A stretch of 64,000 nucleotides of DNA. Source: Vicinamibacterales bacterium. GTDB lineage: Bacteria; Acidobacteriota; Vicinamibacteria; Vicinamibacterales; UBA8438. Location of the stretch: NCBI GenBank assembly GCA_965220695.1, contig OZ244838.1:4547293-4611292 (forward strand), read 5' to 3'. Positions within the stretch are counted from its first letter, which is position 1. Each line of letters begins with the position of its first letter. The notes beneath the pieces were generated by a model. It was not told the origin of the DNA. It made no database searches and saw nothing but the letters and a program-made list of their open reading frames with translations. Shown piece by piece: positions 5,659-61,456 of the stretch. Made by a program: the position numbers and the translations under genes.

Positions 5659-5673
5659 GTTACGAACGGAACA

Positions 5674-8758: not shown

Positions 8759-11700
8759 ATGTCGATATCCCGGCGCACCTTTCTGAAGGCGTCCGTCGGC
8801 GGCGTCGTGGGCGTCAGCGCGCTCGGCTTCGATTTGCAGCCGGCCTACGCGGCGGTGCGCCAGCTCAAGATCCGCAATGCGCGCGAGTACAAGACGGTCT
8901 GCCCCTACTGCGCCGTCGGATGCGGCACCATCGCCTACACCCACGGCAGCGGCGGGCTGAACACCACCAACACGGTCATTCACGTCGAAGGCGATCCCGA
9001 CAACCCCATCAACGGCGGCACGCTCTGCCCGAAGGGCGCGTCACAGATGCAGCTCGCCATCAGTCCGCGGCTGCGCAAGAGCCCGATGTTCCGCGAGGCG
9101 GGCGCCAGCGAGTGGCGCGAGGTCGACTGGGACTTCGCCATGGACTGGTTCGCGCGCAAGTTCAAGGCCTCGCGCGACGCCACCTTCGTCGAGCAGGACA
9201 GCCAGGGCCGCACCGTCAACCGCTGCAACGGCATCGCCTGGGTCGGCAGTGCGACGGTCGCCAACGAGGACGCGTATCTCATCACCAAGACGATGCGCGC
9301 CATGGGGCTGACCTACATCGACCATCAGGCCCGCATATGACACAGCCCCACGGTGGCCAGTCTGGCCGCCACGTTCGGTCGCGGGGCGATGACCAACCAC
9401 TGGAAGGACATCAAGAACGCCGACGTCGTCCTCGTGATGGGCGCCAACCCGGCCGAGAATCACCCCTGCGGGTTCAAATGGGCGCTCGAGGCGCGTGACG
9501 AGAACAAAGCGACGCTGGTCACGATCGATCCGCGGTTCACCCGCACCTCGGCGGTCGCCGACAAACACCTGCAGATCCGTCCGGGGTCCGACATCGCGGT
9601 GCTCGGCGGGCTGATCCGGCATATCCTGACCAACGACCTGCATCACGCCGACTACGTGCGGGAGCATACCAACGCGCCGTTCCTGGTCAGCGGCGAGTTC
9701 GGGTTCGAGGACGGGCTGTTTTCGGGGTTCGACGAGGCGGCCAGCGCCTACGACAAGACGTCATGGGGCTATCAGCGCGGCGCGGACGGCTATGTGCGCC
9801 GCGACGCGACGCTTGAAGACCCGCGCTGCGTCTTCCAGCTTCTGAAACAGCACTACGACCGCTACACCCCGGAGGTCGTCGCGCAGATCGCCGGCTGTTC
9901 CGAGGAAAAATTCCTCGAGATGGCCGAGATCGTCTGTTCGACCGGGCGGGCCGAGCGGGTCGGCACGATCATGTACGCGGTCGGCTGGACGATGCACACC
10001 GTCGGCAGCCAGATCATCCGCACCGCGGCGATCCTGCAGTTGCTGCTGGGCAACATCGGCCGGCCGGGCGGCGGCATCAACGCGTTGCGCGGGCATGCCA
10101 ACGTGCAGGGGGCGACCGACCACGCCATCGTCGCCGGCATCCTGCCGGGCTATCTGAAGGTGCCGACCCCCGAGCAGGCCACGCTCCAGGACCATCTCGC
10201 GGACTCCACCCCGCGGGCGCTGGTTCCCGACACCGTGAACTACTGGGGGAACTATCCGAAGTTCCTCGTCTCGCAGCTCAAGGCCTGGTTCGGGGACCAC
10301 GCGACCGCCGACAACGAGTTCGGCTACCAGTACCTGGGCAAGCAGGACGGCGACGCCACCTGGTTGTCGATCTGGGACGAAGCACGCCAGGGACGGCTGG
10401 AAGGGTTCGTGTCGCTCGGGTTCAACCCGTTGCTGGCCGGTCCCGACGTGCCGCGGTTGCTCGAGTCGATGGCGCGGTTGAAGTGGAAAGTGGTGATCGA
10501 CCCGTTCATGCTCGACAGCGCCGAGTTCTGGCGCGCGCCGGGGATGAACCCGGCCGAGGTCGACACCGAGGTGCTGTATCTGCCGACCACCCACTGGATC
10601 GAGCGGGACGGCTCGTTCACCAACAGCGGCCGCTGGGCGCAGTGGAAGGAGAAGGCAATCGACCCGCCTGACGGCGTGCGGTCGGACACCTACGTGCTCT
10701 CGGAGCTGTTCTGGCGGGTGAAGGAGCTATATCAACAGGAGGGCGACGACGCGGTCTACAACGCGCCGATCCAGCACCTGGCCTGGGACTATCTGAACCC
10801 GCGCGAGCCGACGCTGGTCGAGCTGGCGAAGGAGATCAACGGGTACAACCGGGAGACCGGCGAGTTGCTATCGTCGTTCGGGCAGCTTGCCGCTGACGGC
10901 AGCACGTCGTCCGGCAACTGGATCTATACCGGCAGCTTCACCGAAGCGGGCAACATCATGGCGCGGCGGGGGACCGCCGACCCGACCGGTCTCGGCATGC
11001 ATCACGACTGGGCGTTCAGTTGGCCGCTGAACCGCCGCGTGCTCTATAACCGGGCCTCGGCCGACGCCGATGGCCGGCCCTGGGACCCGTCACGCGCCGG
11101 GATCGCCTGGAACGGCCGCGAGTGGATCGGCGACGTGCCGGACTACGGGCGCACGACGCCGCCGGGCGGCGCCGGGGCGTTCATCATGACCGAGGAGGGC
11201 GTGGCGCGGCTGTTCAGCAGCCACCTGGCGGACGGTCCGCTGTCGGAACACTATGAGCCGGTCGAAAGCCCGACGACGAACACGCTGCACGATGCGGTGC
11301 CGGTGAATCCCGTCATCAACTGGTACGACGGCGTGCGCGACACGCTGGCGACCGACGGCGACGATTTTCCGTATGCCTGCACGGTCTACCGCGTGGTGGA
11401 GCACGAGCACTTCGTCACCCGCAACGTGCCGCTGCTGGTCGAGGCGATGCCCGACTTCTTCGTCGAGATCCCCGAGGGGCTGGCGGCCGAGAAGGGGATC
11501 GAGAACGGTGGGCGCGCGCGCGTCTGGTCGAAGCGCGGCGAGGTCGAAGGGGTGGCCATCGTCACCAAGCGGATCAAGCCGTTGACGGTCAACGGCCGCA
11601 CCGTCTGGACCGTCGGCATCCCGGTGCACTGGGGCTTCGTCGGCATCACCCAGGGCTCGATGGCGAACCTGCTGACGCCGTATATCGGCGACGCGAACAC

Positions 11701-46180: not shown

Positions 46181-47301
46181 ACTTGTTTCTGTAAGTGATT
46201 GTAAATGAAGGACTTGATTTTTTGTGCGTTAGTCTGCAACCCACAATCTGTCCCGCACTAGAGCGGAGCTTGCCGTTCGTACGGGGCCAGCGTGCTTCCC
46301 TCTGGAAGCGTGAAGGCGGAGGCGGTTGTCGTCGAAGTTACGGCCGGATTGCCGACCACATTGAACCAGGGACGGCAACGCGGGAATCGGCAACGACTGA
46401 CGTGGTAAGGCTGTTGAACCGCACGACGTACGCGCGCTTTGACCCACGACACGCGCGGCATGCCCGGACAGATCTGCTCCGACGAGGGCCCGGAGTGGGT
46501 CGCCAGGGCGGTCGCCGGTGGATCATCGCCCTCGACGCCGACAGCGCCTACAGACCACCTGCACCGAAGATCGTGCCACGGCCGGCTTCACCGGCACTCG
46601 AAAAGCGCTTGCTCGGCCACTTCAAGTATGGCTTTATCGACACCGCTCAACTAACATTCGCACCCGATGGGGCCGGTCGTGCCATTGGCACTGCGGGCCG
46701 TCAGGGATGCCAGTGCACAATTCGAGCATTCTCGATGGGCTTGCCGGCGAATCGTCAGGGGGTTGCGGCCATCGCGGCGCCCAGTCCAGCGACAAGGCGA
46801 CCGGGGCGGCGCCAGGTAGGGCGGCAGCGAAGGCGGCGCGATGCAGCGGACAACAAGAGGGTTGGACGTGATCGTGTCCTTGGTCTGTGTGCGATGAACG
46901 TTGCCGCTGGGCGGCAGATTGCAGAAATGCTCACCAGTGCGGATGTGGTGACGCTGACCGAGGCCCGCTTGCCGGCGGCGGTTGTCCTCGCGAAGATAGC
47001 CGCGATTTGCACCGAGTTGGATACGAGCGTCGAGCAGCTCGTGACGTTGTCGGAGATGGGGGTCAACACACCGGGGCAATCGTGGCGATCCTGTCGCCCC
47101 GGTCGCCGAGTGACGAGCCTAGCTCCCGAAAACGCCTTCGCCCGCGCGGTACTTCCGTTGCGTCGACTGCCGCGCGAGCTTCCCATCGGCTACCCAGGGG
47201 TTTCGGTTGCTCGCGCGCCGCAGGCGCAAGCCACACGGGACACGGCAACACACCGGACCCTCAGCATTCCGGTCGCAAAGTAGTAAATCTGGAGGTGCAC
47301 C

Positions 47302-47496
47302 ATGCCAACGCGACGAACTCTTGACAGCGGCGCGCCGTCTCAAGAGACCACCCAAGACTTGAAGAGGCCAACGATCTCCGCCAGAGACGTTGGCGTCACA
47401 CTCCGGATCAGCGACGCGACACTGAAGGAGATAGAACAGATTCAAGAGGAGAACATCAAGGCTGCGCAGGAAGACCAGAAGTTTTCTTGGCGATGA
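47302..47496 (+). CDS. small hypothetical protein upstream of the 526-aa gene
   Basis: 64-aa ORF with a strong RBS (GGAGGTG 4 nt before the ATG). It is charged and helical (ISDATLKEIEQIQEENIKAAQEDQK). No family recognised. Confidence 0.4.
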   Translation: MPTRRTLDSGAPSQETTQDLKRPTISARDVGVTLRISDATLKEIEQIQEENIKAAQEDQKFSWR

Positions 47497-47550: not shown

Positions 47551-49131
47551 ATGACGACACGGTACACGGTTGAGCTACTCGACCGTCCGGACGCTTGGAC
47601 GTTCTTGGCTCAAGCGCTTGGCGGCGATGGCTCTGACGTGGTACGCAATACTCTCCGACATCTCAGCATACTCGGTGTGAAGTCCTACGTTCTCGAAGAA
47701 AAGTACATCGATCGCGACTACTCAGCGGATTACTTGTACTTCTACGCCCGCACGTTCCGGGCCCACGACCGACACTGTAAGCGCGTTCACTTCTTCTCTG
47801 CCGACATATCCCGGCTGCTCCGGCGACCTCTATCAACAGACCGGCTGCGCCGAATCAAGGGTTTCGCAAGCACAACCTATTGCGGCTTTTGCGTCGTTCG
47901 TCCGTTGCCAACCGCGCCAATCGGAAGAACGGTTCTCAAGGGGCGCGTCCGCAGCGGCTTCGACATGGATGCTATCGTCACGTGCCGTGCCGACGTTGAC
48001 GTGAACCTGCTCGGCATCGACCTGCAAGTCACTGGTGCTTCCTTCCTCCAACAGGACGCCCGCGTGGGCGCGTGCGCTCAAGTTGCCATCTGGGCAGGTA
48101 TGCGGCATATGCACGCGCGGTACAAATACAATTGGGTGTCCGTTGCGGACATCACGCGATTCGCTACGCCCACAACCGAAACCGAGTCCATTTCCCTTCC
48201 CGCCGGATCGGACTTCCTCACCTCCGAGCGCATGATTCGTGGAATCAGCGAAGCGGGCTATCAGCCCCTCTGCTTTCGAGGCCGGGACATCGACCGCGCG
48301 ATCCTGCCGTACGTGGAGTCCGGCATTCCCGTCATTCTGGGCCTCAATATCGGCGGGGCCGTAGGTCACGCCGTCACCGTCATCGGCCGCGTATTCGCCA
48401 GGCAGGACACCCCGAGCGACAACGCCATCGACTACGTCCCGGCCTATATCGTCCATGACGACCAAGGTGGCCCCTATATGTGGCTTCCCATGGACGGCGG
48501 CGCTAGCCGGCGATTCTCCTTCGTCGACGATACGACGAAACGTGACACACTCGACGGCACCATCGAGTTGAACGTCCGGAGTCATGCGGTCTTTGCCGTA
48601 GCCCTCATGCCCACGAGGGTCTTCTCGACTGCGGCCGCCGCCGAGCATTCCGCATGGAACCGAATCGACTCCATCTTGCGCGGCATGGCTGGAATCCGTC
48701 AGTTGCTCGATGAGCGCGAACTCACCGTCAACGTCAGGCTCTTGGACGAACTACAGGCAGCGCATGGCGTGGGCCAAATCGTGCTACGGACGTACCTGAC
48801 GTCTGCTGCGGGCTACCGTCGCCACTTAGTCGGAGGCTCGGCTAGCAACGATCTCAAGGATGCAGTGCTCGACCTCCACTTGCCGCACTTCACATGGATC
48901 ACCGAGATTTCTACGATTGATTCGTACAACCAGGCTTCCCCGGGCTTGCGGCGCATCTACGGACATGCGGTTCTCGATGCGACCTCGACCGGCAAAGGCG
49001 GCGACGGCCTGTTGTTGCTCCATCTTCCCGGGCTTCTCGTCACCAACGACATCAATGCTCGAGAGGATCCCGAGAAGATCGCCATCATCCAGGGCGACAC
49101 GTTGTACGAGTGCCGCGAGAAACGCCTCTAG
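47551..49131 (+). CDS. 526-aa protein with a central papain-fold (peptidase C39-like / BtrH_N-like) cysteine peptidase signature; flanking domains unknown
   Basis: The ordered motifs are FLQQDARVGACAQVAIWAG (Gln...Cys), GGAVGHAVTVIGRV (His) and AYIVHDDQGGPY (Asp). I cannot assign the N-terminal ~160 aa (YIDRDYSADYLYFYARTF...CKRVHFF) or the C-terminal ~200 aa. Confidence 0.55.
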   Translation: MTTRYTVELLDRPDAWTFLAQALGGDGSDVVRNTLRHLSILGVKSYVLEEKYIDRDYSADYLYFYARTFRAHDRHCKRVHFFSADISRLLRRPLSTDRLRRIKGFASTTYCGFCVVRPLPTAPIGRTVLKGRVRSGFDMDAIVTCRADVDVNLLGIDLQVTGASFLQQDARVGACAQVAIWAGMRHMHARYKYNWVSVADITRFATPTTETESISLPAGSDFLTSERMIRGISEAGYQPLCFRGRDIDRAILPYVESGIPVILGLNIGGAVGHAVTVIGRVFARQDTPSDNAIDYVPAYIVHDDQGGPYMWLPMDGGASRRFSFVDDTTKRDTLDGTIELNVRSHAVFAVALMPTRVFSTAAAAEHSAWNRIDSILRGMAGIRQLLDERELTVNVRLLDELQAAHGVGQIVLRTYLTSAAGYRRHLVGGSASNDLKDAVLDLHLPHFTWITEISTIDSYNQASPGLRRIYGHAVLDATSTGKGGDGLLLLHLPGLLVTNDINAREDPEKIAIIQGDTLYECREKRL

Positions 49132-50577
49132 CTAGCTAGAGACCATAGCGGGTCTCGTCGGCAGCGTCCCGTTGTCAGCCATGCCTAAGTGGCTGTTCCC
49201 AATCTGGGAACACTCGACGCAGCCAGCGTCGCGCCGCGGCATGTCATAGCCGGCCTCCGCTCGACGGGAGTTCCACCGAAACCACCCAGTCTCGGCGTCG
49301 TCGTACTTCAGACCCGTCATATGGAACAGAAAATCGTCAGCGGCATGTGCGCAGGCGATAGCGTTCATGGTGACCACGCTTGGGGCCACCACACCCGGGT
49401 CGTCGACGTATGCGTATCCGCGCTTGGCCGCTTCCGGCACTGCCTCGTCCTGTAACCGTCCCGGGTTGATGAGGCCGTTACACCACAGGCACCCTTGCTC
49501 GGGTGTCACCATTCGGCTGACGCAGAAGACGTTCCCGACGGCTCCATCCTCGGCAACGGGAATCTTCGCGCCGACCTGGATCCCAGGGATCCCGTACTGA
49601 TGCACAATGGCGTTAAAGAGAAGTCGCGCCCCCATCCTGTCCGCCGCGAGGAAAAGGAAGTCACAGTCCGTGAAACTCGCCGCTACATCCTCCTCGAGGA
49701 AGTCCCTCGCCATCGCCTCGATCCGCGCGTTGCGGTTCGCACGACGAATGTTGCGGCCGGCCATCTGGACTTTGGGTCTACACAATCGGTCCGCAATGAA
49801 CTTTGGGATCCATGAAGGCACGACGGCATCGCGACGCCGAGCTGCGATGAGGCGCGGGAGGTTAGTTTCATCCGCCTGGTCCGGATCCGCGAGTACGAAT
49901 TCTCCCACGCCAAGCCGACCTAACAGTTCGGCCAGTATTGACCCCGCGCCGCCCAGTCCCACGATTCCCACGCGCGTCCGTTGCATCAGTTGCTGGCCGG
50001 CGTCGCCGAACAGACGACTCTGCCGATCGTAAATCCCGACCGCTGCAGCCTGCCTCTCCGGAATCGGGAACAGCAACTGTCGTCGATGACCGATGACCGT
50101 TGCGTGGCGAAGCGGCGCGCGGTCGCAGCCAGGAAACCACAGTTCGCCGGCCGCCGCAGAGCGCGCAAAGACCAACGCGCCGACCGGCATACCTCGCGCA
50201 ATGTCAAGAAGAGCGGGATAGCCGCGTTTGTGTGAGGCCATGTCGACTGCCGAGAACGCGACGGAGTTGGTTCCGCCATGGTTGTGAATGGCGAGGTACG
50301 CCAGCCGCTTGTCTCTCGCGCGGAGGATCCGGCTCTGGATGAACTCCGCTTTCAGCATGCGATAGCCGCGTTTACCCGGCACGTAGTCCACACCGTCCAT
50401 CGCCAGATGGACCTCCCTCGCGACGAGCCTCAGGCCGCGGTCGGACTCGCAAGTGCCGGCAAGGATTACCGCACCGTGCTCGTCGTCATCCCCGGGAAAT
50501 AGGTGGGTCTGGAGTTCAGCGTACAGTCCTGCGGGGATCGTCAGTCTCCAGGATTTCACGTTGGCCTCTTCATCCAT
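49132..50577 (-). CDS. JAB/JAMM metallopeptidase fused to a ThiF/E1-like adenylating enzyme
   Basis: The N-terminus carries E33-HG ... H98-N-H100 ... S109-x-x-D112, which is JAMM-like. The C-terminus has YDRQSRLFG, the Rossmann VGIVGLGGAGSILAELLGRLGVGEFVLADPDQADETNLPR, and two CxxC pairs (CLWC, CVEC) as in MoeB/ThiF/E1. GTG 50559 is an alternative start (GTGA overlap with the E2 stop). Confidence 0.8.
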   Translation of the reverse strand: MDEEANVKSWRLTIPAGLYAELQTHLFPGDDDEHGAVILAGTCESDRGLRLVAREVHLAMDGVDYVPGKRGYRMLKAEFIQSRILRARDKRLAYLAIHNHGGTNSVAFSAVDMASHKRGYPALLDIARGMPVGALVFARSAAAGELWFPGCDRAPLRHATVIGHRRQLLFPIPERQAAAVGIYDRQSRLFGDAGQQLMQRTRVGIVGLGGAGSILAELLGRLGVGEFVLADPDQADETNLPRLIAARRRDAVVPSWIPKFIADRLCRPKVQMAGRNIRRANRNARIEAMARDFLEEDVAASFTDCDFLFLAADRMGARLLFNAIVHQYGIPGIQVGAKIPVAEDGAVGNVFCVSRMVTPEQGCLWCNGLINPGRLQDEAVPEAAKRGYAYVDDPGVVAPSVVTMNAIACAHAADDFLFHMTGLKYDDAETGWFRWNSRRAEAGYDMPRRDAGCVECSQIGNSHLGMADNGTLPTRPAMVSS

Positions 50578-50948
50578 CGGATGACCTTCAGCAACTTCAG
50601 CGCCGCGGTGTCGGTCTCGGGGTTCAGCCTGTTCGATCGGCGCGAGATCTGGATAACCGGCTGGCCTCGAAACGTTGCGGTCCCGAAGCCGCCTCCCAGA
50701 CCGGCGCCGTCGGACCGCGCTAGGTCCGGATTCGTGAAGTGCGGATAGACGTCAGCGTAGGGGTACTGGAACGTGATCTGGAAGCCAATCCAGACCTGAG
50801 CCTGCACGTAGGGGGAACCCATGGGAATGTCCCTCACCATGACGATTGCCCCGCCGGTGCCGTCCGGTTCCGTCTCGACGGCACACGAATCGATCGTGCG
50901 ACGGATTTCCTCGATTGCCGTGGCCACTCCGGGGACGATCGTGCTCAT
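50556..50948 (-). CDS. E2/UBC-like protein (prokaryotic E2 family)
   Basis: 130 aa. WIGFQITFQYPYADVYPHF resembles the UBC core (F.i.i.FP..YP...P...F...HPN). Its operon position is between the Ubl gene and the E1 gene. Confidence 0.55.
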   Translation of the reverse strand: MSTIVPGVATAIEEIRRTIDSCAVETEPDGTGGAIVMVRDIPMGSPYVQAQVWIGFQITFQYPYADVYPHFTNPDLARSDGAGLGGGFGTATFRGQPVIQISRRSNRLNPETDTAALKLLKVIRWMKRPT

Positions 50949-51214
50949 GAGTTGTCGTCATTCTCGATCGCGAGGAACCGGTCGTTGGGATGTACCTCGA
51001 TGAACTGGTCGTCGCCGATCAGATTCGTCTTCCCGCCGCCGAGCTCGATGCTCAGCACGAAGTCCTGCTTGATGTTCACGCCTTGCTCGATTGCCACCTT
51101 CTTGATGTTCTCGCCCGTCTGCTTTGACCCGTCGAGCACCACCGGCTTGTCGTTCAACGTGATTTCGACCTTCCCGTCGTCGATCCCGCCCTTCACGTGT
51201 TCATCGCCTGACAT
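50945..51214 (-). CDS. single-domain ubiquitin-like beta-grasp protein (multiubiquitin-type)
   Basis: 89 aa. KVEITLNDKPVVLDGSKQTGENIKKVAIEQGV...DFVLSIEL....NLIGDDQFIEVHPNDRFLAIE follows the beta-grasp pattern of the prokaryotic multiubiquitin family. RBS AAGAGGTG is present and there is an ATGA overlap with the E2 gene. Confidence 0.55.
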   Translation of the reverse strand: MSGDEHVKGGIDDGKVEITLNDKPVVLDGSKQTGENIKKVAIEQGVNIKQDFVLSIELGGGKTNLIGDDQFIEVHPNDRFLAIENDDNS

Positions 51215-51287: not shown

Positions 51288-51665
51288 ATGAAATTACGAG
51301 AAAAACGCACAGACCGCTTCGACGTCGTCGCGCTGCATGCCGCACTGGACTCCGAACGCCGTTCGCGCCGCATCGCCTGGAAGGATGTGGCGGCGCAGTC
51401 GAACGTGAGCGCATCGACGCTCACCCGTCTGTCCCAGGGCCGTCAACCCGACGTCAACAGCCTCGCAGCTCTCACTGCCTGGCTCGGGATGTCAGCAGAC
51501 CACTTCATGCGCACCGAGACCATTGACCAATTCGGCGCAGCAAGCCCGCTTGCCCAGATCTCCTCCATCATCCATCAAGATCCCAAACTGAATCCCGAGG
51601 GGGCGGTTGCCCTCGAGGAGTTGATCCGGGCCACGTATGCGCGCCTGAGAACCGACAGCGACTGA
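51288..51665 (+). CDS. XRE/Cro-C1-type helix-turn-helix transcriptional regulator
   Basis: IAWKDVAAQSNVSASTLTRLSQGRQPDVNSLAALTAWLGMSADHF is a typical HTH_XRE. It also has a ~45-aa C-terminal extension. Confidence 0.8.
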   Translation: MKLREKRTDRFDVVALHAALDSERRSRRIAWKDVAAQSNVSASTLTRLSQGRQPDVNSLAALTAWLGMSADHFMRTETIDQFGAASPLAQISSIIHQDPKLNPEGAVALEELIRATYARLRTDSD

Positions 51666-52225: not shown

Positions 52226-53488
52226 TCAGGGCCAGCGCACCGAGACGGTGCCGTCGTCGTTGCTGACGAGGATGTCGAACGCGCGCAGCGTTCGCAGCCA
52301 GCGGGGCGCGTTGCGCTTGACGAGGATCGCTTCGTAGTCGGTGGCCGGATCGCGGTAGGGGGTGCCATCACGGAGGACGGCGAAGGCGCAGCGTGCGAGC
52401 TTGTGCGCGGTGGCGACGATGGCACGCTTGTAACCGCGGCGCACGGTGAGCGCCTTGTGGTGCGCCTGGAATTGGCAATTCTTGGTGCGCGCGGCGGCAT
52501 GGGCGCACTCGACGAGCACGGCGCGCAGCGTGCGGCTGCCCCGGCGGGTGCGCCCGGTGCGGCGCTTGCCTGCGCTCTCGTTGTTGCCGGGACACAGACC
52601 GGCCCACGCGGCGAGGCGACTGGCAGCACCGAACACGCTCGGGTCGGGACCCATCTCACTCAGGATGGCGCAGGCCGAGGTGTGGTCGATGCCGGGGATG
52701 GTCTCCAGCAGGCGGCACTGCCTGGTGTAGTCCGTGAGGGCGGTGTCGATGTGCCGGTCGAAGTCCTGCACGCGCCGGTCGAGGTCGTCGTGTCCGGCGA
52801 TGAGGTCGGTGAGCAGGAGGCGATCGGTTTCGCACAAGGTCAGGCGCAGGGCATCGCCGAGGAGTTCCAGGCGGGTGCGGACGTGCCCGCTGAGCGAGTC
52901 CAGGATGTCCGTGCGGGGCCGTCGGGCGACCAGGCCGTCGAGGATGCGCCGGCCATTGAGGCCGAAGATGTCGCTGAGCACGCCTCCGATGCGGATGCCG
53001 CTCCGGTCGAGGACCTTCTGCACCCGGTTGCGCACCTGGCTGCGCTGCCCGACCAGCGTGCGCCGATGGCGAACCAGATTCCGCAGGTCGCAAAACGCCT
53101 CGTCGGGCACGAAACTGGGACGTCCGAGCCCGAACTGGCACACCCGGGCCAACCAGCGGCTGTCTGCGATGTCGGTCTTGCGGCCGCGCAGTTGCCGCAC
53201 GTGCTGCGCGTGCAGCAATTGCGCCTCGATGCCGGCCGCGGTGAGTGCGCGCCACGGCGCCTGCCAGTAGACGCCGGTCCCCTCCAGGGCCGCCGCCTCG
53301 ACGCGATGGCCGGTCAGCCAGGCGGCCAAGGCGTCCAGGCCGCTTGCCAGCGCACTGAAGGTGCGTGTCTCGCAGGTCGGCTCACTGCCGGGCGCTGCAC
53401 AGAGCCGCACCGTGGCTGTGATCGCCATTTTGTGCACATCGAGTCCCGCGGCGCGGGGATGGACAACGTGCAGGTCATCGTTCATCAT
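52226..53488 (-). CDS. IS110-family transposase
   Basis: Start at MMNDDLHVVHPRAAGLDVHKMAI after AGGAGG. The DEDD N-domain and the C-terminal LLETIPGIDHTSACAILSEMGPD...F........AWAGLCPGNNESAGKR block are present. Confidence 0.9.
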   Translation of the reverse strand: MMNDDLHVVHPRAAGLDVHKMAITATVRLCAAPGSEPTCETRTFSALASGLDALAAWLTGHRVEAAALEGTGVYWQAPWRALTAAGIEAQLLHAQHVRQLRGRKTDIADSRWLARVCQFGLGRPSFVPDEAFCDLRNLVRHRRTLVGQRSQVRNRVQKVLDRSGIRIGGVLSDIFGLNGRRILDGLVARRPRTDILDSLSGHVRTRLELLGDALRLTLCETDRLLLTDLIAGHDDLDRRVQDFDRHIDTALTDYTRQCRLLETIPGIDHTSACAILSEMGPDPSVFGAASRLAAWAGLCPGNNESAGKRRTGRTRRGSRTLRAVLVECAHAAARTKNCQFQAHHKALTVRRGYKRAIVATAHKLARCAFAVLRDGTPYRDPATDYEAILVKRNAPRWLRTLRAFDILVSNDDGTVSVRWP

Positions 53489-53890
53489 CGGTTCGCCTCC
53501 TGTAGGGGTACGGGGGGTGGTGGAAGCGGGGCGATCGGTCGGACGGAGAACTCGCGCCCCGAGGGCGCGGTGCACTTTGCTGCACGTCCACGGCGTGAGG
53601 CCGGGCACATTGCGGGGCTCGACGCCGACCGACCAGGTCAGTTTAGCGTCGGGGAACGTCCACCATTCGAAATAACGACCACTGTCCCGCCTCCGCCGCT
53701 ATTGTGCATCGGCCCCCGATGGAACGGCACGGAGACGCTAGCCGAACCGGTCGCCCGTCTCGCCCATTTCATGGCTTCGGGGTGGTGAGGTGGGACCGAC
53801 CATGACGGTTTAGCGGGTAGAGTTCGATGGTCGCGTGAGATCCAATTTTTTGAACCTGTACTTTTCTAGGGGATCTGGCATAACTGTGGG

Positions 53891-55333
53891 GTGCCACGGC
53901 AACGTCCCCGGACCGAGCAGGATCCGCGCGATACTCGCATTGAGGAACAAGAGCGAGAGATCGCACGACTGCGCGAGGAGTTGACGCGGGTCGAGGGCGA
54001 CCGGGATTGGTGGAAGCGCCGCAGTGAACACCTCAAGCAGCAACTCGACGCCGCGCGGCGGGCAGGATTTCGGCAAGCCGCCCCGTTCGCCAAGGACCGG
54101 CCGCAAGGTCGCGGCGGGCGTCCCGGCCGGCGAGCGGGTGCGCGCTATGGCCGGCAGGCGTGCCGCCCGCGGCCGGCGCAGGTCGACGAGACCCACGCGG
54201 CGCCGGCGCCGGCCGCCTGTCCGGACTGCGGCGGCGCGGTCGAGGTGACCCGTGTGGCGTCGCAGTATCAGGAAGAACTCCCCAAGGTGCGCCCCATCGT
54301 GCGGTGCTTCGAAATCGAGGTTGGCCATTGCTCCCAGTGTCGGCGGCGCGTCCAGGGCCGCCACCCGCTGCAGACCTCCGACGCGATGGGGGCGGCCAGC
54401 GTGCAGCTCGGCCCCGCGGTCGTCGCGCTGGTCGTCGAGATGCACACGCACCTGGGCGTGCCGCTGGCCAAGATCGCGCACCTGTTGAAGACGCAATGCG
54501 GATTGACGGTTACGCCCGGAGGCCTCACGCAGGTGCTGCATCGCACCGCCCGCGAGGCGGCGCCGACCTACACGGCATTGTGCGAGCAGGTGCGGGAAAG
54601 TCCCATGGTCACGCCGGATGAAACCGGCTGGCGCGTCGGCGCCGTCCGCCACTGGCTGTCGGTCTTCGCCGCGCCGCAGACGACGGTCTACGCCATTTGC
54701 CCCGGCCGCGGGTTCGACGCTGCCGCCACCGTGCTCGGGGCCGACTACAACGGCGTGCTCGTGCGCGACGGGTGGGCGCCGTATCGCCGCTTCACCCACG
54801 CGCTGCACCAGACCTGTCTGGCTCACCTGATCCGGCGAGCGCGGCAACTCCGAACCGATCATCCGCGCAGCCCGTGGGCCGCCCGGGTGCAACGCGTCCT
54901 GCAAGCCGGCCTCGACCTGCGCGACCGCCGCGACGCCGGGCTGCTGAGCGACCATGGTCTGGCAACCGCTCGCGGCCAACTGCTCGCCCAACTCGGTCGG
55001 CTGATCGACAAAGCGCCGACGCTGGACGCCGCCGACCGCTTCGCCGCGCACCTGGCCACCGAATTCCCTGCGGTATTCGGCTTTCTGTGGGACCCGTCGG
55101 TCAACGCCACCAACTGGCGCGCCGAACAGGCCATTCGGCCCGCCGTCGTCACCCGCAAGGTCTGCGGCGGCAATCGCACCCGGCACGGCGCCGACACCCA
55201 GCAGGTGCTCGCCAGCGTCGTGCGCATCGTTCACCAACGCCACCTCGACCTCACCCCGCTGATCGCCACCATCCTCCACGCCACCGACCCCGTCGTCCCC
55301 GAACCACTCCAACGCCCGCCCTCGCCGACGTGA
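53891..55333 (+). CDS. IS66-family transposase (single-ORF type)
   Basis: Leucine-zipper-like N-terminus, zinc finger CPDCGG......C..C, and VTPDETGWRVGAVRHWLSVFAAPQTTVY with a DDE core typical of IS66 TnpC. Confidence 0.9.
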   Translation: MPRQRPRTEQDPRDTRIEEQEREIARLREELTRVEGDRDWWKRRSEHLKQQLDAARRAGFRQAAPFAKDRPQGRGGRPGRRAGARYGRQACRPRPAQVDETHAAPAPAACPDCGGAVEVTRVASQYQEELPKVRPIVRCFEIEVGHCSQCRRRVQGRHPLQTSDAMGAASVQLGPAVVALVVEMHTHLGVPLAKIAHLLKTQCGLTVTPGGLTQVLHRTAREAAPTYTALCEQVRESPMVTPDETGWRVGAVRHWLSVFAAPQTTVYAICPGRGFDAAATVLGADYNGVLVRDGWAPYRRFTHALHQTCLAHLIRRARQLRTDHPRSPWAARVQRVLQAGLDLRDRRDAGLLSDHGLATARGQLLAQLGRLIDKAPTLDAADRFAAHLATEFPAVFGFLWDPSVNATNWRAEQAIRPAVVTRKVCGGNRTRHGADTQQVLASVVRIVHQRHLDLTPLIATILHATDPVVPEPLQRPPSPT

Positions 55334-55365
55334 CGGGTTGCAACGCCGCCACGACCGCTCCACGC

Positions 55366-56492
55366 GCCGACTCGCTGAGCATTCGCACGTTTCTGGATTT
55401 CGCCCTGCACAAGGCCCCGCCGGACCACTCGATGCTGTCGCGCACCCGTCGCCTGATTGACCTCGAGACCCATCAGGCAGTGTTCACGTGGGTGTTGCAG
55501 CGACTGGCCGACGCCACGCTGGTCGTGGGGCGCACGGTGGGCATCGATGCCACGACGCTGGAAGCCAATGCGGCGATGCGGAGCATCGTGCGGCGGGACA
55601 CGGGCGAGAGCTACGACGCATTTCTGACCCGGCTGGCCGAGGCGTCCGGCCTCACGACCCCGACGCGCGCCGAGTTGGCCCGGTTCGACCGGACCCGCAA
55701 GAAGAAGGGCTCGAACGACGACTGGACCCACCCGCACGATCCGGACGCGAAGATCACGAAAATGAAGGACGGCCGCACGCATCTGGCGCACACCGCCGAG
55801 CATGCGGTCGATCTGGACACAGGCGCCATCGTGGGCGTGACGGTGCAGGACGCGAGTGCGGGCGACACGACGACCCTGGTCGACACGCTCGTCACGGCTG
55901 CCGAGCAGGTCGAGGCGGTCGGCGCGCCGGGGATCGCGGAGGTCGTGGCCGACAAGGGGTATCACAGCAACGAGACGATGGTCGGGTTTGCGGCCATCGG
56001 CGTCCGCAGCTACGTCTCGGAGCCGGACCGCGGCCGGCGCCACTGGAAGGGCCAGGCGGCGGCGCGGGACGCGGTGTATGCCAACCGGCGGCGGATTCGC
56101 GGCGCACGCGGGAAACGGCTGCTGCGGCAGCGGGGCGAGCTACTGGAACGGCCCAACGCGCATCTCTACGAGACCGGCAGGATGCGCCGCGTCCATCTGC
56201 GCGGGCATCCCAACATCCTGAAACGGCTGCTCGTCCAGGTCTGCGGCGTCAATCTCGGGTTGCTCATGCGGCACCTGACGGGCGTGGGCACGCCGCAGAG
56301 CCTCCAGGGCCGCGCGTCGGCGCTGGTGGAGGCGCTGATCGGCCTCCTGAGCGGCTCCTGGGGGCGTGTGCGGCGCTTCTGGGCCCCGGAGCGCCATGAT
56401 CGGCCCGATTCGTCGTCGGATGGTCCGGCGACACGCCAATACGGACACGCGATTCTCGATTGACAATCAGCCCCTTCTGCCACGGGCTGCTA
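55366..56492 (+). pseudogene. 5'-truncated IS5/IS1182-like element (transposase lacking about 95 N-terminal residues)
   Basis: ADSLSIRTFLDFALHKAPPDHS... is collinear with residue ~96 onward of the intact copy at 60047-61456. The terminal repeat ...GCCACGGGCTGCTA(G) lies at 56478-56492. The upstream part is replaced by the IS66 element. Confidence 0.8.
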
Positions 56493-57686
56493 GTGCTGCG
56501 CCACGATTAAAGATTAGGGCACGCGGAACCGATAGAGTTCCCATGCAGAAAAAGTATATCGTCCGACTCACCGCCGAGGAACGCGAGGTCTGTCAGCAGA
56601 CGGTCCGCAAGCTCAAGGGCAGCAGCGAGAAGGTACGCCGCGCGCAGATTCTCTTGCAGGCCGATGCGGACGGACCGGGGTGGACCGACCAGCAGATCGC
56701 CGACGCCTTTTCGTGCCGCACCAAGACGGTCGAAAACATTCGCCAACGATGCGTACTGGCAGGATTCGAGCGGGCGCTGGAACGCAAACGACGGCCGTCG
56801 CCCCCGGTCCCCAAGCTGCTCGACGGCGAACAGGAAGCGCAGGTCATCGCCCTGCGTCTGGGCCCGCCCCCCAAGGGCTACGCCAACTGGTCGTTGCGGC
56901 TGCTGACGCGGCGGGTCGTCGAGTTGCAGATCGTCGAGTCGGTCAGCCGCGAGACCCTCCGGCGTACGCTAAAACAAACGGGATGACCCGGCGGAAAATC
57001 GAGTACTGGGTGATCCCGCCGGAGGCCGACGCCGAGTTCGTGGCGCACATGGAGCAGGTCTTGGACACCTATGCGCAACCGTACGACCCGGCTTGCCCGG
57101 TCGTGTGCATGGATGAGCAGCCGGTGCAACTGGTCAAGGAAACGCGCCCGCCGATGGCCGCCACGCTGGCGCGGCCCCGCCGCGTCGACTACGAGTACGA
57201 ACGGGCCGGCACGGCCTCGGTCTTCCTGTTCAGCGAGCCGCTGGCGTGTTGGCGGCGGGCGACGGCGCGGGCCCGGCGGACGAAGGCGGACTGGGCGGTG
57301 GAGGTCGCCGACCTGTTGGAGGGCCGCTACGCCGACTGCCCGAAAGTCACCCTGGTGTGCGACAACCTCAACACGCACACGCCCGGCGCCTTCTACGAGG
57401 TGTTCGAGCCGGCCCGGGCTCGGGAACTGGTTCGTCGCCTGGAGTTCTGCTACACGCCGAAGCACGGGAGCTGGCTGAACATCGCCGAGAATGAACTGAG
57501 TTCGATGACGCGTCAATGCCTGGACGGGCGCCGCATCGGCGACCTCGAGACGCTGCACGGCGAAGTGTCGGCGTGGTCCACCGACGTCACTGCTACGCAA
57601 CGCGGTGTCGACTGGCAGATGCAGGTCGACGATGCGCGCCGTAAACTCAAGTCCGTCTATCCGAATATTTTGACGTGACGAAGCAC
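56493..57686 (+). mobile_element. IS630-family insertion sequence (1194 bp) with TA target duplication
   Basis: The inverted repeats are GTGCTGCGCCACG on the left and CGTGACGAAGCAC on the right, matching at 11 of 13 positions. The element is flanked by TA at 56491-56492 and 57687-57688. Confidence 0.85.
56543..57678 (+). CDS. IS630-family transposase, two overlapping frames (orf1 56543-56986, orf2 to 57678)
   Basis: orf1 has HTH domains (IVRLTAEEREVCQQ.., WTDQQIADAF). orf2 is the DDE domain (VVCMDEQPVQL, LVCDNLNTHTP, KHGSWLNIAENELS). The frames could be joined by a -1 slip at AAAA (56971-56974) or by restart at the ATGA overlap (56983). Confidence 0.85.
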
Positions 57687-57713: not shown

Positions 57714-59660
57714 TTACGGATCGACGTTACCTAAGCGCCGTTCCTGGAAGGCGACTACCCACTTTTTCAACGTGCGACCGCGACGCTTAGCCATTGACAT
57801 CGAAAAGTGGCTCCTTAGGAGGAACTCTTCCGCTGCCCCCGAGTCCAGCTCATGCAGATCTCTGGCACTTGCCCACTCTTTCCACCGCTGCGCCACCATG
57901 CTCAGTTCGAACTGGACTGAGAGAAAGTCCAGAATCCTGGACTCAGGAAGTTGTGCCAATCGTTGGCCAGAGTCTGTGATCGTACCGTCCTGGCCCAAAA
58001 GTCCCAACACTTTCGCGCCATGTTTCATGTAATCTATGTGCCGCTTGGAACTAGAGGTGCCCGCCATCCGCATCTCTGCTGGGCTCGGTTCAGAACCCGC
58101 GCTGACAAGCTTTACAACTTCGATAATGCGGTCGAGGCGATCTTGTTGAGGAACGTCCCCAGACGTTAGCGCTCGTTGCGGCTGAAGAGAATCCCCTATA
58201 GGCATCGTTGCATTCGTTGACGAGGCGCCCACGGAAACGAGCTCCGATCGGGATTTGGACTCGCCAGACACAGCGGTTGTAACGACCGTATCGAGCGTGA
58301 AGAGGTACTGGCGTCCTATGACCTTCTGGAGAAGAACCGAACGTCGTCCGGGAGGGATGTCGGCCCTTAAGGCCTTGCCGCCCTCAGTCACGATCTCTAG
58401 ATGGCCATGTCGCTGACTGGCGCCCTCGAGCGTCGCCTGGATCTGACTCCTAGTGCTGATTCCTTCCGGTTCCTGTTTCATCCGCTCGATCGCGGGCGCA
58501 ACGCGTCTTGATCGGATTCTCGTACGCGCACCTTCAAAAGATCTGGCGTCAGTCAGTCCAATAGTCGCGTCCAGATTTCTCTGAGCAAGCGTCTCAATGA
58601 ACTGAAAGAAGTGGTCCTTCGACACAGCACTCAATTCGCTAGAGGAAAAAGCCTGCTCTGGATCCTGGGCAAGTCGCATCATGCGCTCAAAAGCGACTGA
58701 GAACACCTCTGGTTGCTTGACCGACACAATGAAGCGGAGTAGGAACGATCCAGGTGCCGGAACCAGCGCATATGTCTTCATCGTCGACGCGACATCAGGA
58801 GCGACCGAAGCCACAGCCTCACGGACTGCTATTCTCCAGGAATGAACCAACTTCTCGAAGGTCCCGATTGCAAGGCGCCCCTTATCGGGGTCAGAGCCAA
58901 TAAGCGTGACTTGCTCGACGATCCCTCCACCTCGCTCAGCCTGTTCCCGACACTCGTAGCTAGCGCGAGCAGTGGCTAGCGCTTCGCCGACAAGCCGTAA
59001 CACAGCAACTGGCAGCGCCGATGGTGCCAGTTCCGAGAAAGTGCGCTCCTGCTCTACAATCCGATCACGATGATCGATTGGGAGGTCCGGTGGGGCGTCA
59101 GATGACAGTGCCCGGATCGAGTCGGCAACCTCCGAGCCCATCCCCGCTATGAGGGACACGGAGTTCAGATGAGTCACTAGTATTTCGGCTTGCTGCTGAC
59201 TCAGAAGTCTAGACAGCAGCTTCCGTTCTCCCATCGAGATGAGCAAGCCGCAGATTCCGTCCTGGACGATGGGTGAAGAATCCACGCAGTAAGTCGCAAA
59301 CGATCCGAAACTCGGTGCCAGAACCGCCGTGAGCAAGTCATCGTGGGCACGGTACCGGGTCAAAGAGGAGAGCACGTTTGCCAGTGTTGACTGGTCCTCG
59401 CTCCACGAGGTGGTCAAGAAGTGGGCCAGAGGTGCCCAAAGATAGGGTGGTTGTTCCGATGCGGTCTTGGACAAAGCGTACGACACAACACGCCGAAGAT
59501 AGACGTTGTCGGAGGTCGCTAGGCAGCTCCAGGTGAGGATGCCAGCGTTGCTCGGGTCTTCCTTGATCGCTGTCTCTACAAGAGTCAAGATCAGGTCTTC
59601 ATCGTGGCTGTCGATGGCGCGACCTAACCTTCGGAGGTAACCACTTGAGCTGGGAGTCAT
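57714..59660 (-). CDS. 648-aa hypothetical protein (helical-repeat-like N-terminus, possible winged-helix-like C-terminus); no family recognised
   Basis: A long ORF in visibly lower-G+C DNA (about 47-55% in hand-counted lines). It is not a high-GC antisense artefact. No catalytic motif identified. Confidence 0.65.
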   Translation of the reverse strand: MTPSSSGYLRRLGRAIDSHDEDLILTLVETAIKEDPSNAGILTWSCLATSDNVYLRRVVSYALSKTASEQPPYLWAPLAHFLTTSWSEDQSTLANVLSSLTRYRAHDDLLTAVLAPSFGSFATYCVDSSPIVQDGICGLLISMGERKLLSRLLSQQQAEILVTHLNSVSLIAGMGSEVADSIRALSSDAPPDLPIDHRDRIVEQERTFSELAPSALPVAVLRLVGEALATARASYECREQAERGGGIVEQVTLIGSDPDKGRLAIGTFEKLVHSWRIAVREAVASVAPDVASTMKTYALVPAPGSFLLRFIVSVKQPEVFSVAFERMMRLAQDPEQAFSSSELSAVSKDHFFQFIETLAQRNLDATIGLTDARSFEGARTRIRSRRVAPAIERMKQEPEGISTRSQIQATLEGASQRHGHLEIVTEGGKALRADIPPGRRSVLLQKVIGRQYLFTLDTVVTTAVSGESKSRSELVSVGASSTNATMPIGDSLQPQRALTSGDVPQQDRLDRIIEVVKLVSAGSEPSPAEMRMAGTSSSKRHIDYMKHGAKVLGLLGQDGTITDSGQRLAQLPESRILDFLSVQFELSMVAQRWKEWASARDLHELDSGAAEEFLLRSHFSMSMAKRRGRTLKKWVVAFQERRLGNVDP

Positions 59661-60046: not shown

Positions 60047-61456
60047 CTAACAGGCTGTGGCAGAACGGCTACCTTGTAGCGTGAGCGGAAGGAGTTGATG
60101 GCGCTGCGTGGGGTGGGCAATCCACGACGAATCGTGCGGATCAAACAGACGATCCGCTCCGGAAAGCGCTACATGGCGCCAGCGGCGGCTGAGAGCCCGG
60201 CTCAGAGCGTCAAGGAGTGCCCTGGCGCGGCCCTGGAGGCTGCGCGGGGTCCGGACGCCCGTCAGTTCGCGCATGAGGAGGCCCAGATTCGAGCCACAGA
60301 CGTGGACGAGCAGACGCGATCGTTGACAGTTGGAGTGTCCGCGCAGATGCACGCGGCGCAATCGCCCGGTTTCGTTGACGTGAGCGTGGGGACGCTCGAG
60401 GCGTTCCCCACGCTGCCGCAGCAGGCGGCGCCCGCGGACGCGCCGAATGCGCCGCCGGTTGGCGCAAACGGCCGCCCGCGCAGCAGGCTTTCGCCGCCAG
60501 CAACGCCGTCCGCGGTCCGGCTCCGACACGTAACTGCGGATTCCCAACTCGGCCAACGCAACCAGGGTTTCGTTGCTGTGATATCCCTTATCGCCGACCA
60601 CCTCGGTGAGGCCGGCCCCGGCCGGCAGGACCGCCTCGACCTGCTCGGCCGCGGTAATCAAGGTCTCGACCATCGTCGTCGTGTCACCGGCATCGGCATC
60701 CTGCACGGTGATGCCGACGACCGCTCCGGTCTCCAGGTCGATCGCGTGCTCGGCCTTGTGTGCCAGCCGGGTGCGGCCGTCCTTCATGCGGGTGATCTTC
60801 GCGTCCGGGTCCTGCGGATGCACCCAATCGTCGTTGGACCCCTTCTTCGGGCGCTTGCAGTCGAAGCGGGCCAGCTCGGCGCGCGTCGGTGTCGAAATGC
60901 CGGACGCCTCGGCCAGCCCGCGCAGGAACGTTTCGTCGCCCTCGCCCGTGTCCCGGCACACGATGCGCCGCAACGCGGCATTGGCTTCCAGCGTCGTCGC
61001 ATCGATGCCCACGGTCTTGCCTCGGACCAGACCGGCGTCGGGCAGCCGCTGCAGCACCCACGTGAAGACCGCTTGGTGCGTCTCCAGGTCGATCCGCCGT
61101 CGCGTTCGCGATACCGTCGAATGGTCCGGCCCCGCCTCGTGCAGCGCGATGTCCAGGAACTGCCGCAGGCTCAACGAATCGGCCACCCGCCACGCGATCG
61201 CCCGTTCCGAGTCCAGGCCCTCGAAGTAGCGGAGCAACAGCATCCGGACGTAGCGGCCCGGCGCCACACTCGGCCGGCCCACCCCGTCGGCGTAGAACCT
61301 CGCGCACAGGCTCTCGACAAAGGCGTCGAAATCCGCCTCGTCGAGGACGCCAATCAATCGTTCGTAGAACGGCTGACCTCCGCCTCCCGGCACGTCCGCG
61401 CTGGCCACCCACATCGACGGCTGCCGCGCGCGGCAGCGCCGTTTACCCATTGCCAT
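60047..61456 (-). CDS. IS5/IS1182-like DDE transposase (469 aa)
   Basis: PFYERLIGVLDEADFDAFVE, RPSVAPGRYVRMLLLRYFEGLDSER (DUF772-like N-domain), VGIDATTLEANAA and VVGDKGYHSNE. It is collinear with the truncated copy at 55366-56463. Confidence 0.85.
   Translation of the reverse strand: MAMGKRRCRARQPSMWVASADVPGGGGQPFYERLIGVLDEADFDAFVESLCARFYADGVGRPSVAPGRYVRMLLLRYFEGLDSERAIAWRVADSLSLRQFLDIALHEAGPDHSTVSRTRRRIDLETHQAVFTWVLQRLPDAGLVRGKTVGIDATTLEANAALRRIVCRDTGEGDETFLRGLAEASGISTPTRAELARFDCKRPKKGSNDDWVHPQDPDAKITRMKDGRTRLAHKAEHAIDLETGAVVGITVQDADAGDTTTMVETLITAAEQVEAVLPAGAGLTEVVGDKGYHSNETLVALAELGIRSYVSEPDRGRRCWRRKPAARAAVCANRRRIRRVRGRRLLRQRGERLERPHAHVNETGRLRRVHLRGHSNCQRSRLLVHVCGSNLGLLMRELTGVRTPRSLQGRARALLDALSRALSRRWRHVALSGADRLFDPHDSSWIAHPTQRHQLLPLTLQGSRSATAC

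Follow-up and report, generated by a model that had tools for sequence, protein, structure and literature searches.

The window, a stretch of 64,000 nucleotides from a Vicinamibacterales genome, encodes a ubiquitin-like protein (Ubl), an E2-like protein and an E1 fused to a JAB/JAMM peptidase domain, and raises the question of how such a module could operate when its E2 lacks a cysteine at the expected catalytic position and its Ubl has no C-terminal glycine. To our knowledge, activation of every Ubl described to date takes place at a C-terminal glycine, and all E1 and E2 enzymes described before the bacterial Bub pathway (2024) were cysteine-based. An earlier note on this DNA had considered a Ser/oxyester relay, prior trimming of the Ubl and a non-conjugating module, and had noted, correctly, that Bub proceeds through oxyester intermediates, which form on a tyrosine of the E1 and a serine of the E2 (Ye, Gong, Chambers & Corbett, bioRxiv 2024, 10.1101/2024.11.21.623953). 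Both the E1 and the E2 of the locus proved to be homologous to Bub proteins (BubCD and BubB), so that the relay is the best reading. Judging from sequence comparison, we consider it fairly probable that the serine-ended Ubl is conjugated by Bub-like Tyr/Ser oxyester chemistry, in a six-gene, diverged relative of Type I Bub.

A mobile six-gene module

Read in the direction of the Ubl gene, the module runs from a divergent helix-turn-helix (HTH) gene through the Ubl, E2 and JAB-E1 genes to two oppositely oriented genes, for a 526-aa and a 64-aa product (Table 1). The Ubl and E2 genes overlap by 4 nt (ATGA), and the 526-aa gene is convergent with the E1 gene and abuts it. The HTH protein is the probable regulator of the module, and its gene lies divergently upstream of the Ubl gene in most related loci (59-96% identity). 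The 64-aa ORF is similarly placed in about 40 of the 48 related loci (42-75% identity) and has a conserved C-terminal part (..IQEE.I.AA....KF.WR); searches that included Pfam and PHROGs returned no family match for it.

Table 1. Features of the module, in positions of the window
Feature	Position	Strand	Remarks
HTH protein (125 aa)	51288..51665	+	divergent from Ubl; weak HTH_31 and HTH_26 matches
Ubl (89 aa)	50945..51214	-	single Multi_ubiq-type domain; protein end FLAIENDDNS-stop, tail N-D-D-N-S-COOH
Ubl DDNS codons	50948-50959	-	Ser89 codon 50948-50950
BubB-like cysteine-less E2 (130 aa)	50556..50948	-	predicted nucleophile Ser102, codon 50643-50645
E2 Tyr68 codon	50745-50747	-	
E2 Ser79 codon	50712-50714	-	
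JAB/JAMM peptidase-E1 adenylation domain fusion (481 aa)	49132..50577	-	BubCD homologue
JAB-E1 residues			JAB E33, H98, H100, D112; ATP loop GLGGAGS 207-213; cysteines C363/C366 and C453/C456
JAB-E1 crossover-loop Tyr390 codon	49408-49410	-	
526-aa protein, putative papain-fold cysteine peptidase	47551..49131	+	Q168, C175 (codon 48073-48075), H273, D303/D304
64-aa ORF, no family assigned	47302..47496	+	directly upstream of the 526-aa gene

The module is a horizontally mobile, diverged relative of Type I Bub and falls in the class that Iyer et al. (2006) termed '6e'. Clustered at 50% identity (E <= 0.001), its clade forms 265 clusters, spread over many phyla. In most of the fetched loci synteny is kept, at about 55-96% identity; these loci represent many phyla and one plasmid and, having been gathered with the closer-relative alignment, are biased towards close relatives. 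GC content is 60-63% in the module against 65-74% in its flanks, and an IS cluster adjoins it. The role of the module is probably in defence or stress response; the Bub operons tested by Ye et al. gave no phage protection (10.1101/2024.11.21.623953). The neighbourhoods of relatives include CBASS genes, the interior of a T4SS element and a site beside an integrase.

The 526-aa protein had been called papain-fold in the earlier note, and a papain-like signature is indeed present: its residues (Table 1) are invariant in 43 sequences and kept in a homologue that is only 28% identical, and the predicted secondary structure, although from a low-confidence model, fits the papain order, in which Gln precedes a Cys at the N-terminus of a helix and His and Asp/Asn follow on successive strands. 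The fold itself remains tentative, because the mean pLDDT of the AF2 model is only 65, and it falls below 50 over residues 161-240, around the putative active site. The better Foldseek matches were mostly papain-fold peptidases, led by staphopain (1cv8) at no better than E=5.8e-3 and including PCAT1 C39, AvrRpt2 and SpeB. The putative papain domain is flanked by N- and C-terminal domains without assigned function, and the protein had no match in Pfam, PADLOC, NCBIfam or PHROGs and no PDB sequence match. The family is an as yet unannotated partner that is probably proteolytic.

The serine terminus of the Ubl

The Ubl matched Pfam Multi_ubiq (PF14452; E=2.4e-5, 24.9 bits, above the 24.5-bit gathering threshold), as did 18 of 20 members of its family (best 3e-10). 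Against the PDB, the single sequence gave nothing meaningful and the family profile matched the Bub Ubl 9cd2_A, a multi-ubiquitin protein of E. coli ZDHYS365, only weakly (E=0.017); the top match of the profile, a rice protein (9rsv), looks spurious. PADLOC, NCBIfam and PHROGs gave no match for either the Ubl or the E2.

The earlier note had read the Ubl as ending in ...ENDDNS without a C-terminal glycine, and so it does, its only glycine run being ELGGGK at residues 57-62. The DDNS terminus recurs in all 120 database homologues and in all 47 fetched loci, the terminal serine is also present in five of five distant split members, and each of the 172 split genes examined has its stop codon directly after the serine. 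In nine of ten representatives in which Ubl and E2 are fused, DDNS, DDEAS or NDESS stands at the junction, with the first E2 helix starting 7-14 residues further on, and the sequence after this motif is variable; in tandem di-Ubl forms the tail is found on the last domain only. The tail can be summarized as [D][D/E][N/A/S/D]-S, with N, A, S or D at position -1 and D or H at position -3. Among the 47 loci, synonymous variants occur at the D, N and S codons (GAC/GAT, AAC/AAT, TCA/TCG), and selection therefore acts on the peptide and not on the DNA. A canonical cassette adjoins the module in loci L001-L004, where its Ubl ends in ...KRG-stop, indicating that the type of terminus tracks the enzyme clade. 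Taken together, these observations suggest that the terminal Ser89 is probably the mature, activated end of the Ubl.

Some other readings of the terminus were considered and rejected. The ELGGGK run is not a plausible cleavage site, as it lacks conservation and the last conserved segments of the Ubl domain come after it; a -1 frameshift fusing the Ubl to the E2 would still provide no glycine; and Asn-specific MccB-like chemistry is at odds with a penultimate residue that varies.

It is unlikely, in our estimate, that the Ubl is instead a precursor from which the JAB domain or the 526-aa protein removes Ser, NS or DNS, so that an Asn or Asp is then adenylated in an MccB-like manner. MccB is an E1-like enzyme that acts on a C-terminal Asn, and it is among the PDB matches of our E1, over the Rossmann region only (E=2e-4). 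Moreover, the JAB catalytic residues are invariant even though Ubl and E2 are separate genes, and selection on the JAB domain despite a free-standing Ubl leaves room for trimming; a papain-fold partner is also present, with a ubiquitin 'clippase' (9f5t) among its weak structural matches. Yet a stop codon placed right after the serine in 172 of 172 split genes, together with the lack of conservation of ELGGGK, does not favour the requirement for prior trimming that had been proposed earlier; in eukaryotic Ubl precursors the trimmed residues differ in both sequence and length. Nor is any other candidate end residue universal, because position -1 varies and either D or H stands at position -3, and the 526-aa gene is absent from distant clade members.

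With Ser89 preferred as the activated end, it is the terminus that stands out: the cysteine-less E2 is already explained by Bub, whereas the serine terminus is not. The general view is that E1-type enzymes prefer a C-terminal glycine, and no E1 that activates a C-terminal serine is known to us. A precedent for small termini other than glycine would be offered by the substrates of Cap2, which end in glycine or alanine. Our literature searches found neither a 'Type III Bub' nor a serine-terminated Ubl.

Cysteine-free E1 and E2 enzymes

The JAB-E1 protein matched Citrobacter BubCD over residues 11-418 (9ea4_A; phmmer, E=7.8e-23) and ThiF at E=1.5e-29, while PADLOC and NCBIfam returned generic E1 or ThiF matches only. 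Its JAB and adenylation motifs are intact and conserved across 44 sequences. Y390 aligns without gaps with Y370 of BubCD and is kept in the distant relatives L046, L050 and L054; Y388 was rejected as the E1 nucleophile, since distant members keep Y390 but not Y388. The loop region has no cysteines besides a CxxC pair, and by analogy with MoeB/ThiF-type proteins we infer that C363/C366 and C453/C456 form a zinc site. In homology alignments, neither the JAB-E1 nor the E2 has a cysteine where E1 and E2 enzymes carry the catalytic one.

Structural modelling of the E2, a check put forward in the earlier note, led to the same pathway: Citrobacter BubB (9eae_C) was the top and only significant Foldseek match in the PDB (E=3.3e-4, prob 1.00, TM 0.69, 20% identity) for an AF2 model with a pLDDT of 89.5. 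At the sequence level the family profile matched BubB weakly (E=0.041) and the single sequence reached only E=1.3; the profile alignment sets S102-R103 on S333-R334 of BubB ('SR' of QISRR on 'SR' of WSRHR) and Y68 on D299. In 81 diverse sequences (mean column identity 33%) no columns other than Y68 and S102 are invariant, and the alignments point to Ser102 as the likely nucleophile of the E2. H70 and S102 lie about 32 residues apart, much like D299 and S333 of BubB (about 34). The motif SRRSN, compared with SR-HRS of BubB, has no histidine at the position of H335. Since neither of the invariant BubB partners, H335 and D299, is conserved here, the chemistry of the E2 could differ, and Y68 itself could act as the nucleophile. 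In Pfam, the window E2 stays below the 25-bit gathering threshold of Prok-E2_E (PF14462; 17.2 bits, E=0.0044), a family matched by 31 of 81 clade E2s at E<0.01 (best 1.4e-9).

A module without conjugation, in which the E2 would be an inactive UEV/RWD-like Ubl binder and the E1 would only adenylate, or in which the Ubl would serve the 526-aa protease as scaffold or regulator, accords with the absence of both a catalytic cysteine and a C-terminal glycine, and the module is without a known target or phenotype. Iyer et al. (2006; PMC1779556) had proposed such a binder role for the 6e E2 and annotated it as inactive, a reading that is now superseded. However, the homologous Bub proteins of Citrobacter and E. 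coli conjugate in vitro and in cells, via the aligned Tyr and Ser (10.1101/2024.11.21.623953), and conservation in the clade is highest at exactly these two residues, in the ATP-binding loop and at the JAB residues. This third option of the earlier note is thus very unlikely, given that purifying selection acts on every catalytic motif examined.

Within the preferred oxyester relay, the earlier note had proposed S79 as the candidate residue analogous to that of Bub. The positions that it gave are right: C22 is the single cysteine of the 130-aa translation, and S79, in DLARSDGAG, lies nine residues past H70 of YPHF, at the canonical UBC spacing; among relatives at least 72% identical, S79 is 85% and C22 94% conserved. 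That S79 is the oxyester residue, or C22 a cryptic thioester site, can nevertheless be given hardly any credence, for in 150 representatives clustered at 50% identity the two columns read A36/V27/K18/R15 and S30/A26/H24/C12, neither is invariant or nearly so in the 81 diverse sequences, and the catalytic serine of BubB aligns with S102. H70 itself is conserved in only 64% of the 150. With no cysteine conserved in either the 150 representatives or the 81 sequences, and a variable column nine residues after H70, the family departs from canonical UBC enzymes. The rule of 8-10 residues after HPN fails because the gap from H70 to S102 is about 32 residues.

Relation to known pathways and a proposed relay

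Our reference for Type I Bub was the set BubAB, BubCD and BubE (PDB 9ea4, 9eae, 9eav). Like it, the module has a fused JAB-E1 that carries a crossover-loop tyrosine but lacks a catalytic cysteine, an E2 of BubB fold with an invariant serine followed by an arginine, a Multi_ubiq-type Ubl whose gene immediately precedes that of the E2 (some clade members fuse the two), and a mobile or defence-like context with HTH or CapH/CapP-like regulators. Unlike in Type I Bub, where BubAB is a Ubl-E2 fusion cleaved after a conserved glycine (G229), the Ubl ends in an invariant serine, and in the window Ubl and E2 are separate, overlapping genes. The window E2 has Y68 for D299, besides lacking the histidine; the E1 keeps two CxxC pairs, whereas BubCD has no cysteines at the position of the first; and where Type I Bub has the DUF6527 Ser/His protease BubE, the module has the 526-aa putative cysteine peptidase and the 64-aa ORF. 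DUF6527 was matched by none of the six module genes and was not found in the Pfam annotations of the related-loci gene tables returned.

With Type II Bub (BubA, BubBD, BubE) the module shares a free-standing Ubl gene and, as predicted, a cysteine-free Tyr/Ser relay; the E2-E1 fusion, the usual lack of a JAB domain, the invariant Lys and His by the catalytic serine, and BubE are Type II features not seen in the module. The combination of Ubl, cysteine-less E2-like protein and JAB-E1 is that of operon class 6e (Iyer, Burroughs & Aravind 2006, PMC1779556), but the metal-binding 'Y' protein of that class (now DUF6527) is absent and the E2 falls below the Prok-E2_E cut-off. Bil pathways and Cap2/Cap3 of type II CBASS are likewise bacterial conjugation machineries with E1, E2 and JAB proteins in defence islands, yet they use catalytic cysteines and thioesters.

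In the relay that we propose, the E1 would adenylate the alpha-carboxylate of Ubl Ser89, the terminal serine standing in for the glycine of described Ubls, and Tyr390 would receive the Ubl as an aryl oxyester. The Ubl would then move to Ser102 of the E2, where the invariant Tyr68 may take the place of BubB Asp299, and aminolysis would transfer it to a target lysine. In relatives with a fused Ubl-E2 the JAB domain would cut after the junction serine, while in the split form of the window it would more likely edit or recycle conjugates. The 526-aa papain-like protein may replace BubE, either as a deconjugating peptidase or as a regulated effector.

In this clade, cysteine-free Bub enzymes are combined with a modifier that strictly ends in serine, and the active site of the E2 differs from that of Bub. 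The chances seem to us about even that it represents a third type of Bub-like pathway, defined by a Ubl with a C-terminal serine, a Tyr(E1)-to-Ser(E2) oxyester relay, a Tyr/Ser site in the E2 and a hitherto undescribed papain-like protease in place of BubE. If so, a C-terminal glycine would not be required by E1/E2 chemistry. And if the serine is indeed the activated end, the rules of E1 recognition and acyl transfer would be broader than has been assumed, and the clade would constitute a natural comparison set for the tuning of oxyester relays.

Catalytic residue of the E2-like protein

Two minus-strand genes overlapping by 4 nt (ATGA) occupy 50556-51214, and the genes around this pair, which encodes a modifier (Ubl) and an E2-like protein, form a single unit. 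Every element of the earlier note's sequence description of this interval was confirmed at its coordinates. The E2-like protein has C22 as its sole cysteine, H70 in a YPHF motif, S79 in DLARSDGAG and S102 in QISRRSN.

Genes of the module in window coordinates
Gene	Position	Strand or arrangement	Product
64-aa ORF	47302..47496	precedes 526-aa gene	64 aa
526-aa gene	47551..49131	convergent with 481-aa gene, abutting	526 aa
JAB-E1	50577..49132	downstream of E2 gene, 22-nt overlap	481 aa
E2-like	50948..50556	minus	130 aa
Ubl	51214..50945	minus	89 aa, C-terminus ...DRFLAIENDDNS*
Helix-turn-helix (HTH)	51288..51665	divergent from Ubl gene	125 aa

The E2-like protein scores 17.2 bits against Prok-E2_E, below the 25-bit threshold, and among 81 diverse members of the clade, 31 hit this family (best 1.4e-9). 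Its AlphaFold2 model (pLDDT 89.5, pTM 0.85) had a single significant match in a PDB structure search, Citrobacter BubB (9eae_C; E=3.3e-4, probability 1.00, TM 0.69, 125 columns, 20% identity).

The earlier note had placed S79 at the catalytic position, as an oxyester candidate, by a spacing of 8-10 residues after the HPN motif. Among close relatives (the best 120 of 827 matches, all at least 72% identical), S79 is 85% conserved, being otherwise A or L, and S102, R103 and S105 are each 100% conserved. At E <= 0.001, a profile search of a library clustered at 50% identity matched 265 clusters; among the best 150, the residues at the S79 position are A36/V27/K18/R15 and those at the C22 position S30/A26/H24/C12, with Ser at the S102 position in 129/140. 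Across 81 diverse full-length members, whose identity to the window protein is 26-48% and whose mean column identity is 33%, Y68 and S102 are the sole invariant columns. Alignment of this 81-sequence profile with BubB sets S102-R103 on S104-R105 in chain numbering, which is S333-R334 in the paper of Ye, Gong, Chambers & Corbett (bioRxiv 10.1101/2024.11.21.623953), and Y68 on D70 (D299). S79, variable among diverse members, is therefore refuted as the nucleophile; on this evidence it is S102 that is homologous to the serine proven to act in Bub. The spacing rule also fails, because about 32 residues part the YPH motif from S102 (about 34 from D299 to S333 in BubB), with strands predicted in between at 89-93 and 96-100. 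No histidine was found at the H335 position in the profile-BubB alignment (SRRSN vs SR-HRS).

Activating enzyme and relation to the Bub pathway

Bub operons, formerly '6E' or 'DUF6527' operons, were described by Ye et al. (10.1101/2024.11.21.623953). In Type I, the BubAB protein joins Ubl to E2 and is cut by BubCD's JAB domain just behind a conserved glycine; BubCD itself fuses JAB and E1 domains, has no catalytic cysteine and carries an invariant crossover-loop tyrosine, Y370; the serine that is invariant in the BubB E2 is S333, close to H335 and D299; and BubE is a DUF6527 Ser/His protease (Ye et al.). Conjugation was abolished by mutating Y370, or S333 and H335 together, and no phage protection was found for the tested operons (Ye et al.). 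The earlier note is therefore correct that Bub was described as using oxyester intermediates. Class 6e had already been noted by Iyer et al. 2006, who termed its E2 'inactive E2-/RWD like' (PMC1779556); a cysteine-less E2 in a 6e-type operon is thus already known, and has been explained since 2024.

The 481-aa JAB-E1 carries a ThiF domain (1.5e-29) and is homologous over its full length to Citrobacter BubCD (9ea4_A, E=7.8e-23, residues 11-418 vs 8-400). The JAB residues E33, H98, H100 and D112, the GLGGAGS loop and the CxxC pairs C363/C366 and C453/C456 are conserved in 44 sequences, and by analogy with MoeB/ThiF-type proteins both pairs would serve as a structural zinc site. Phmmer pairs Y388 with the BubCD tyrosine. 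In a multiple alignment including the distant loci L046, L050 and L054, the invariant tyrosine is Y390, in Y-[VIL]-[DE]-D, gap-free on BubCD Y370; Y388, unconserved there, was rejected as the E1 tyrosine. Homology thus supports an oxyester pathway, with its E2 residue corrected to S102 and Y390 of the E1 added.

The module shares with Type I Bub a BubCD-type E1 with its tyrosine and a BubB-type E2 with its serine, and departs from it in three features, having neither the glycine terminus with its fusion, nor the His and Asp that accompany the serine, nor BubE. DUF6527 was found neither in the module genes nor in the Pfam annotations of the related loci's gene tables. The module is therefore classed as a Bub variant of its own, belonging to neither Type I nor Type II.

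The serine terminus of the Ubl

The Ubl scores 24.9 bits against Pfam Multi_ubiq, barely above the threshold of 24.5, and 18/20 clade members match that family (best 3e-10). DDNS is the terminus of all 120 database homologues among the matches listed and of the Ubl in all 47 fetched loci with a Ubl gene, where the 4-nt A/GTGA overlap follows and synonymous variants of the D, N and S codons occur. Five distant members with separate Ubl and E2 genes end in APDDNS* (three), EGDENS* and DHHEDS*; universal are the terminal serine and an acidic residue at -2. The ELGGGK run of the window Ubl is not conserved among diverse members. In 9/10 representatives of fused Ubl-E2 proteins, DDNS, DDEAS or NDESS lies 7-14 residues ahead of the first E2 helix, and the sequence after it is not conserved; in Type I BubAB the cleavage glycine occupies the exact place of this serine motif. 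Tandem di-Ubl proteins bear the tail on the last domain only: homologues P0391-P0397 and P0458 (153-156 aa) have near-identical domains, of which only the second keeps NDDNS. Read most simply, the serine would be the mature, activated C-terminus of the Ubl, and this terminus is the part of the module that published Bub work leaves unexplained.

Metagenome contigs L001-L004 carry two Bub-like cassettes back to back (~1700-9634). The first, canonical one comprises a CapH/CapP-like pair (HTH, M78-like peptidase), a Multi_ubiq protein with the terminus ...KRG*, a Prok-E2_E protein that scores above threshold, a JAB-E1 and an uncharacterised protein of 264 aa; the serine-terminated cassette, with 525-aa and 64-aa partners, follows directly. 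Given KRG* in the adjoining canonical cassette, terminus type therefore tracks enzyme clade.

Partner proteins, distribution and genomic setting

Searches of Pfam, PADLOC, NCBIfam, PHROGs and PDB sequences gave no match to the 526-aa protein. Its residues Q168, C175, H273, D303 and D304 do not vary across 43 sequences, and a homologue of 28% identity, encoded upstream of the Ubl-E2-E1 cassette in locus L005, retains them too. The AF2 model of the 526-aa protein is of low confidence (mean pLDDT 65; <50 over residues 161-240), with a papain-compatible order of secondary structure (Cys where a helix begins, His and Asp on strands that follow one another). Papain-fold cysteine peptidases make up most of the better Foldseek matches, among them staphopain 1cv8 (E=5.8e-3, probability 0.99), the PCAT1 C39 domain, AvrRpt2 and SpeB. 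The 526-aa protein is probably a papain-like cysteine peptidase. More distant serine-terminated clade members are without this gene, and several have an HTH and Peptidase_M78 pair in its place.

When one genome per species was scanned, 43 related loci came up, in Acidobacteriota, Chloroflexota, Nitrospirota, Binatia, Gemmatimonadota, Rhodothermales, Thermodesulfobacteriota and Alpha- and Gammaproteobacteria, including Bradyrhizobium and one Mesorhizobium plasmid. The closest (L006) is in a Vicinamibacterales MAG, with core proteins 95-96% identical; most fetched loci retain the six-gene order, single genes being roughly 42-96% identical.

In the window the module (60-63% GC; flanks 65-74%) has housekeeping-type genes (GSDH-like, M24 peptidase) on one side and an IS110/IS66/DDE_3 transposase gene cluster on the other. 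Beside the module, this cluster (52226-57678 and 60047-61456) holds IS110 and IS66 family transposases, an unassigned ORF and DDE_3 (IS630-like), with a DUF772/DDE_Tnp_1 gene farther off; between IS elements, a minus-strand 648-aa ORF (57714-59660) in a 56-58% GC patch had no Pfam, PADLOC or NCBIfam match. From the M24 peptidase gene to the 64-aa ORF runs a ~1.1-kb gap (46195-47283), whose sole ORF is a doubtful one of 362 aa with a GTG start and across which GC dips to ~63%; it may be the left boundary of the inserted module.

Relatives adjoin CBASS genes, lie within a type IV secretion/conjugative region or stand beside an integrase. In L005 the Ubl-E2-E1 cassette (288-2892) adjoins CBASS-type genes (patatin, SMODS/CD-NTase, SEC-C-motif protein), and the 526-aa homologue there (507 aa) is on the same strand, not convergent. 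Distant serine-terminated members in L054 (1-5570) and L050 (8558-9766) lie in a type IV secretion/conjugative region (TrbC, TrbL, TraG-like) and beside a phage-type integrase. Together, the spread, GC content, IS elements and neighbour settings fit a putative mobile module of defence or stress type.
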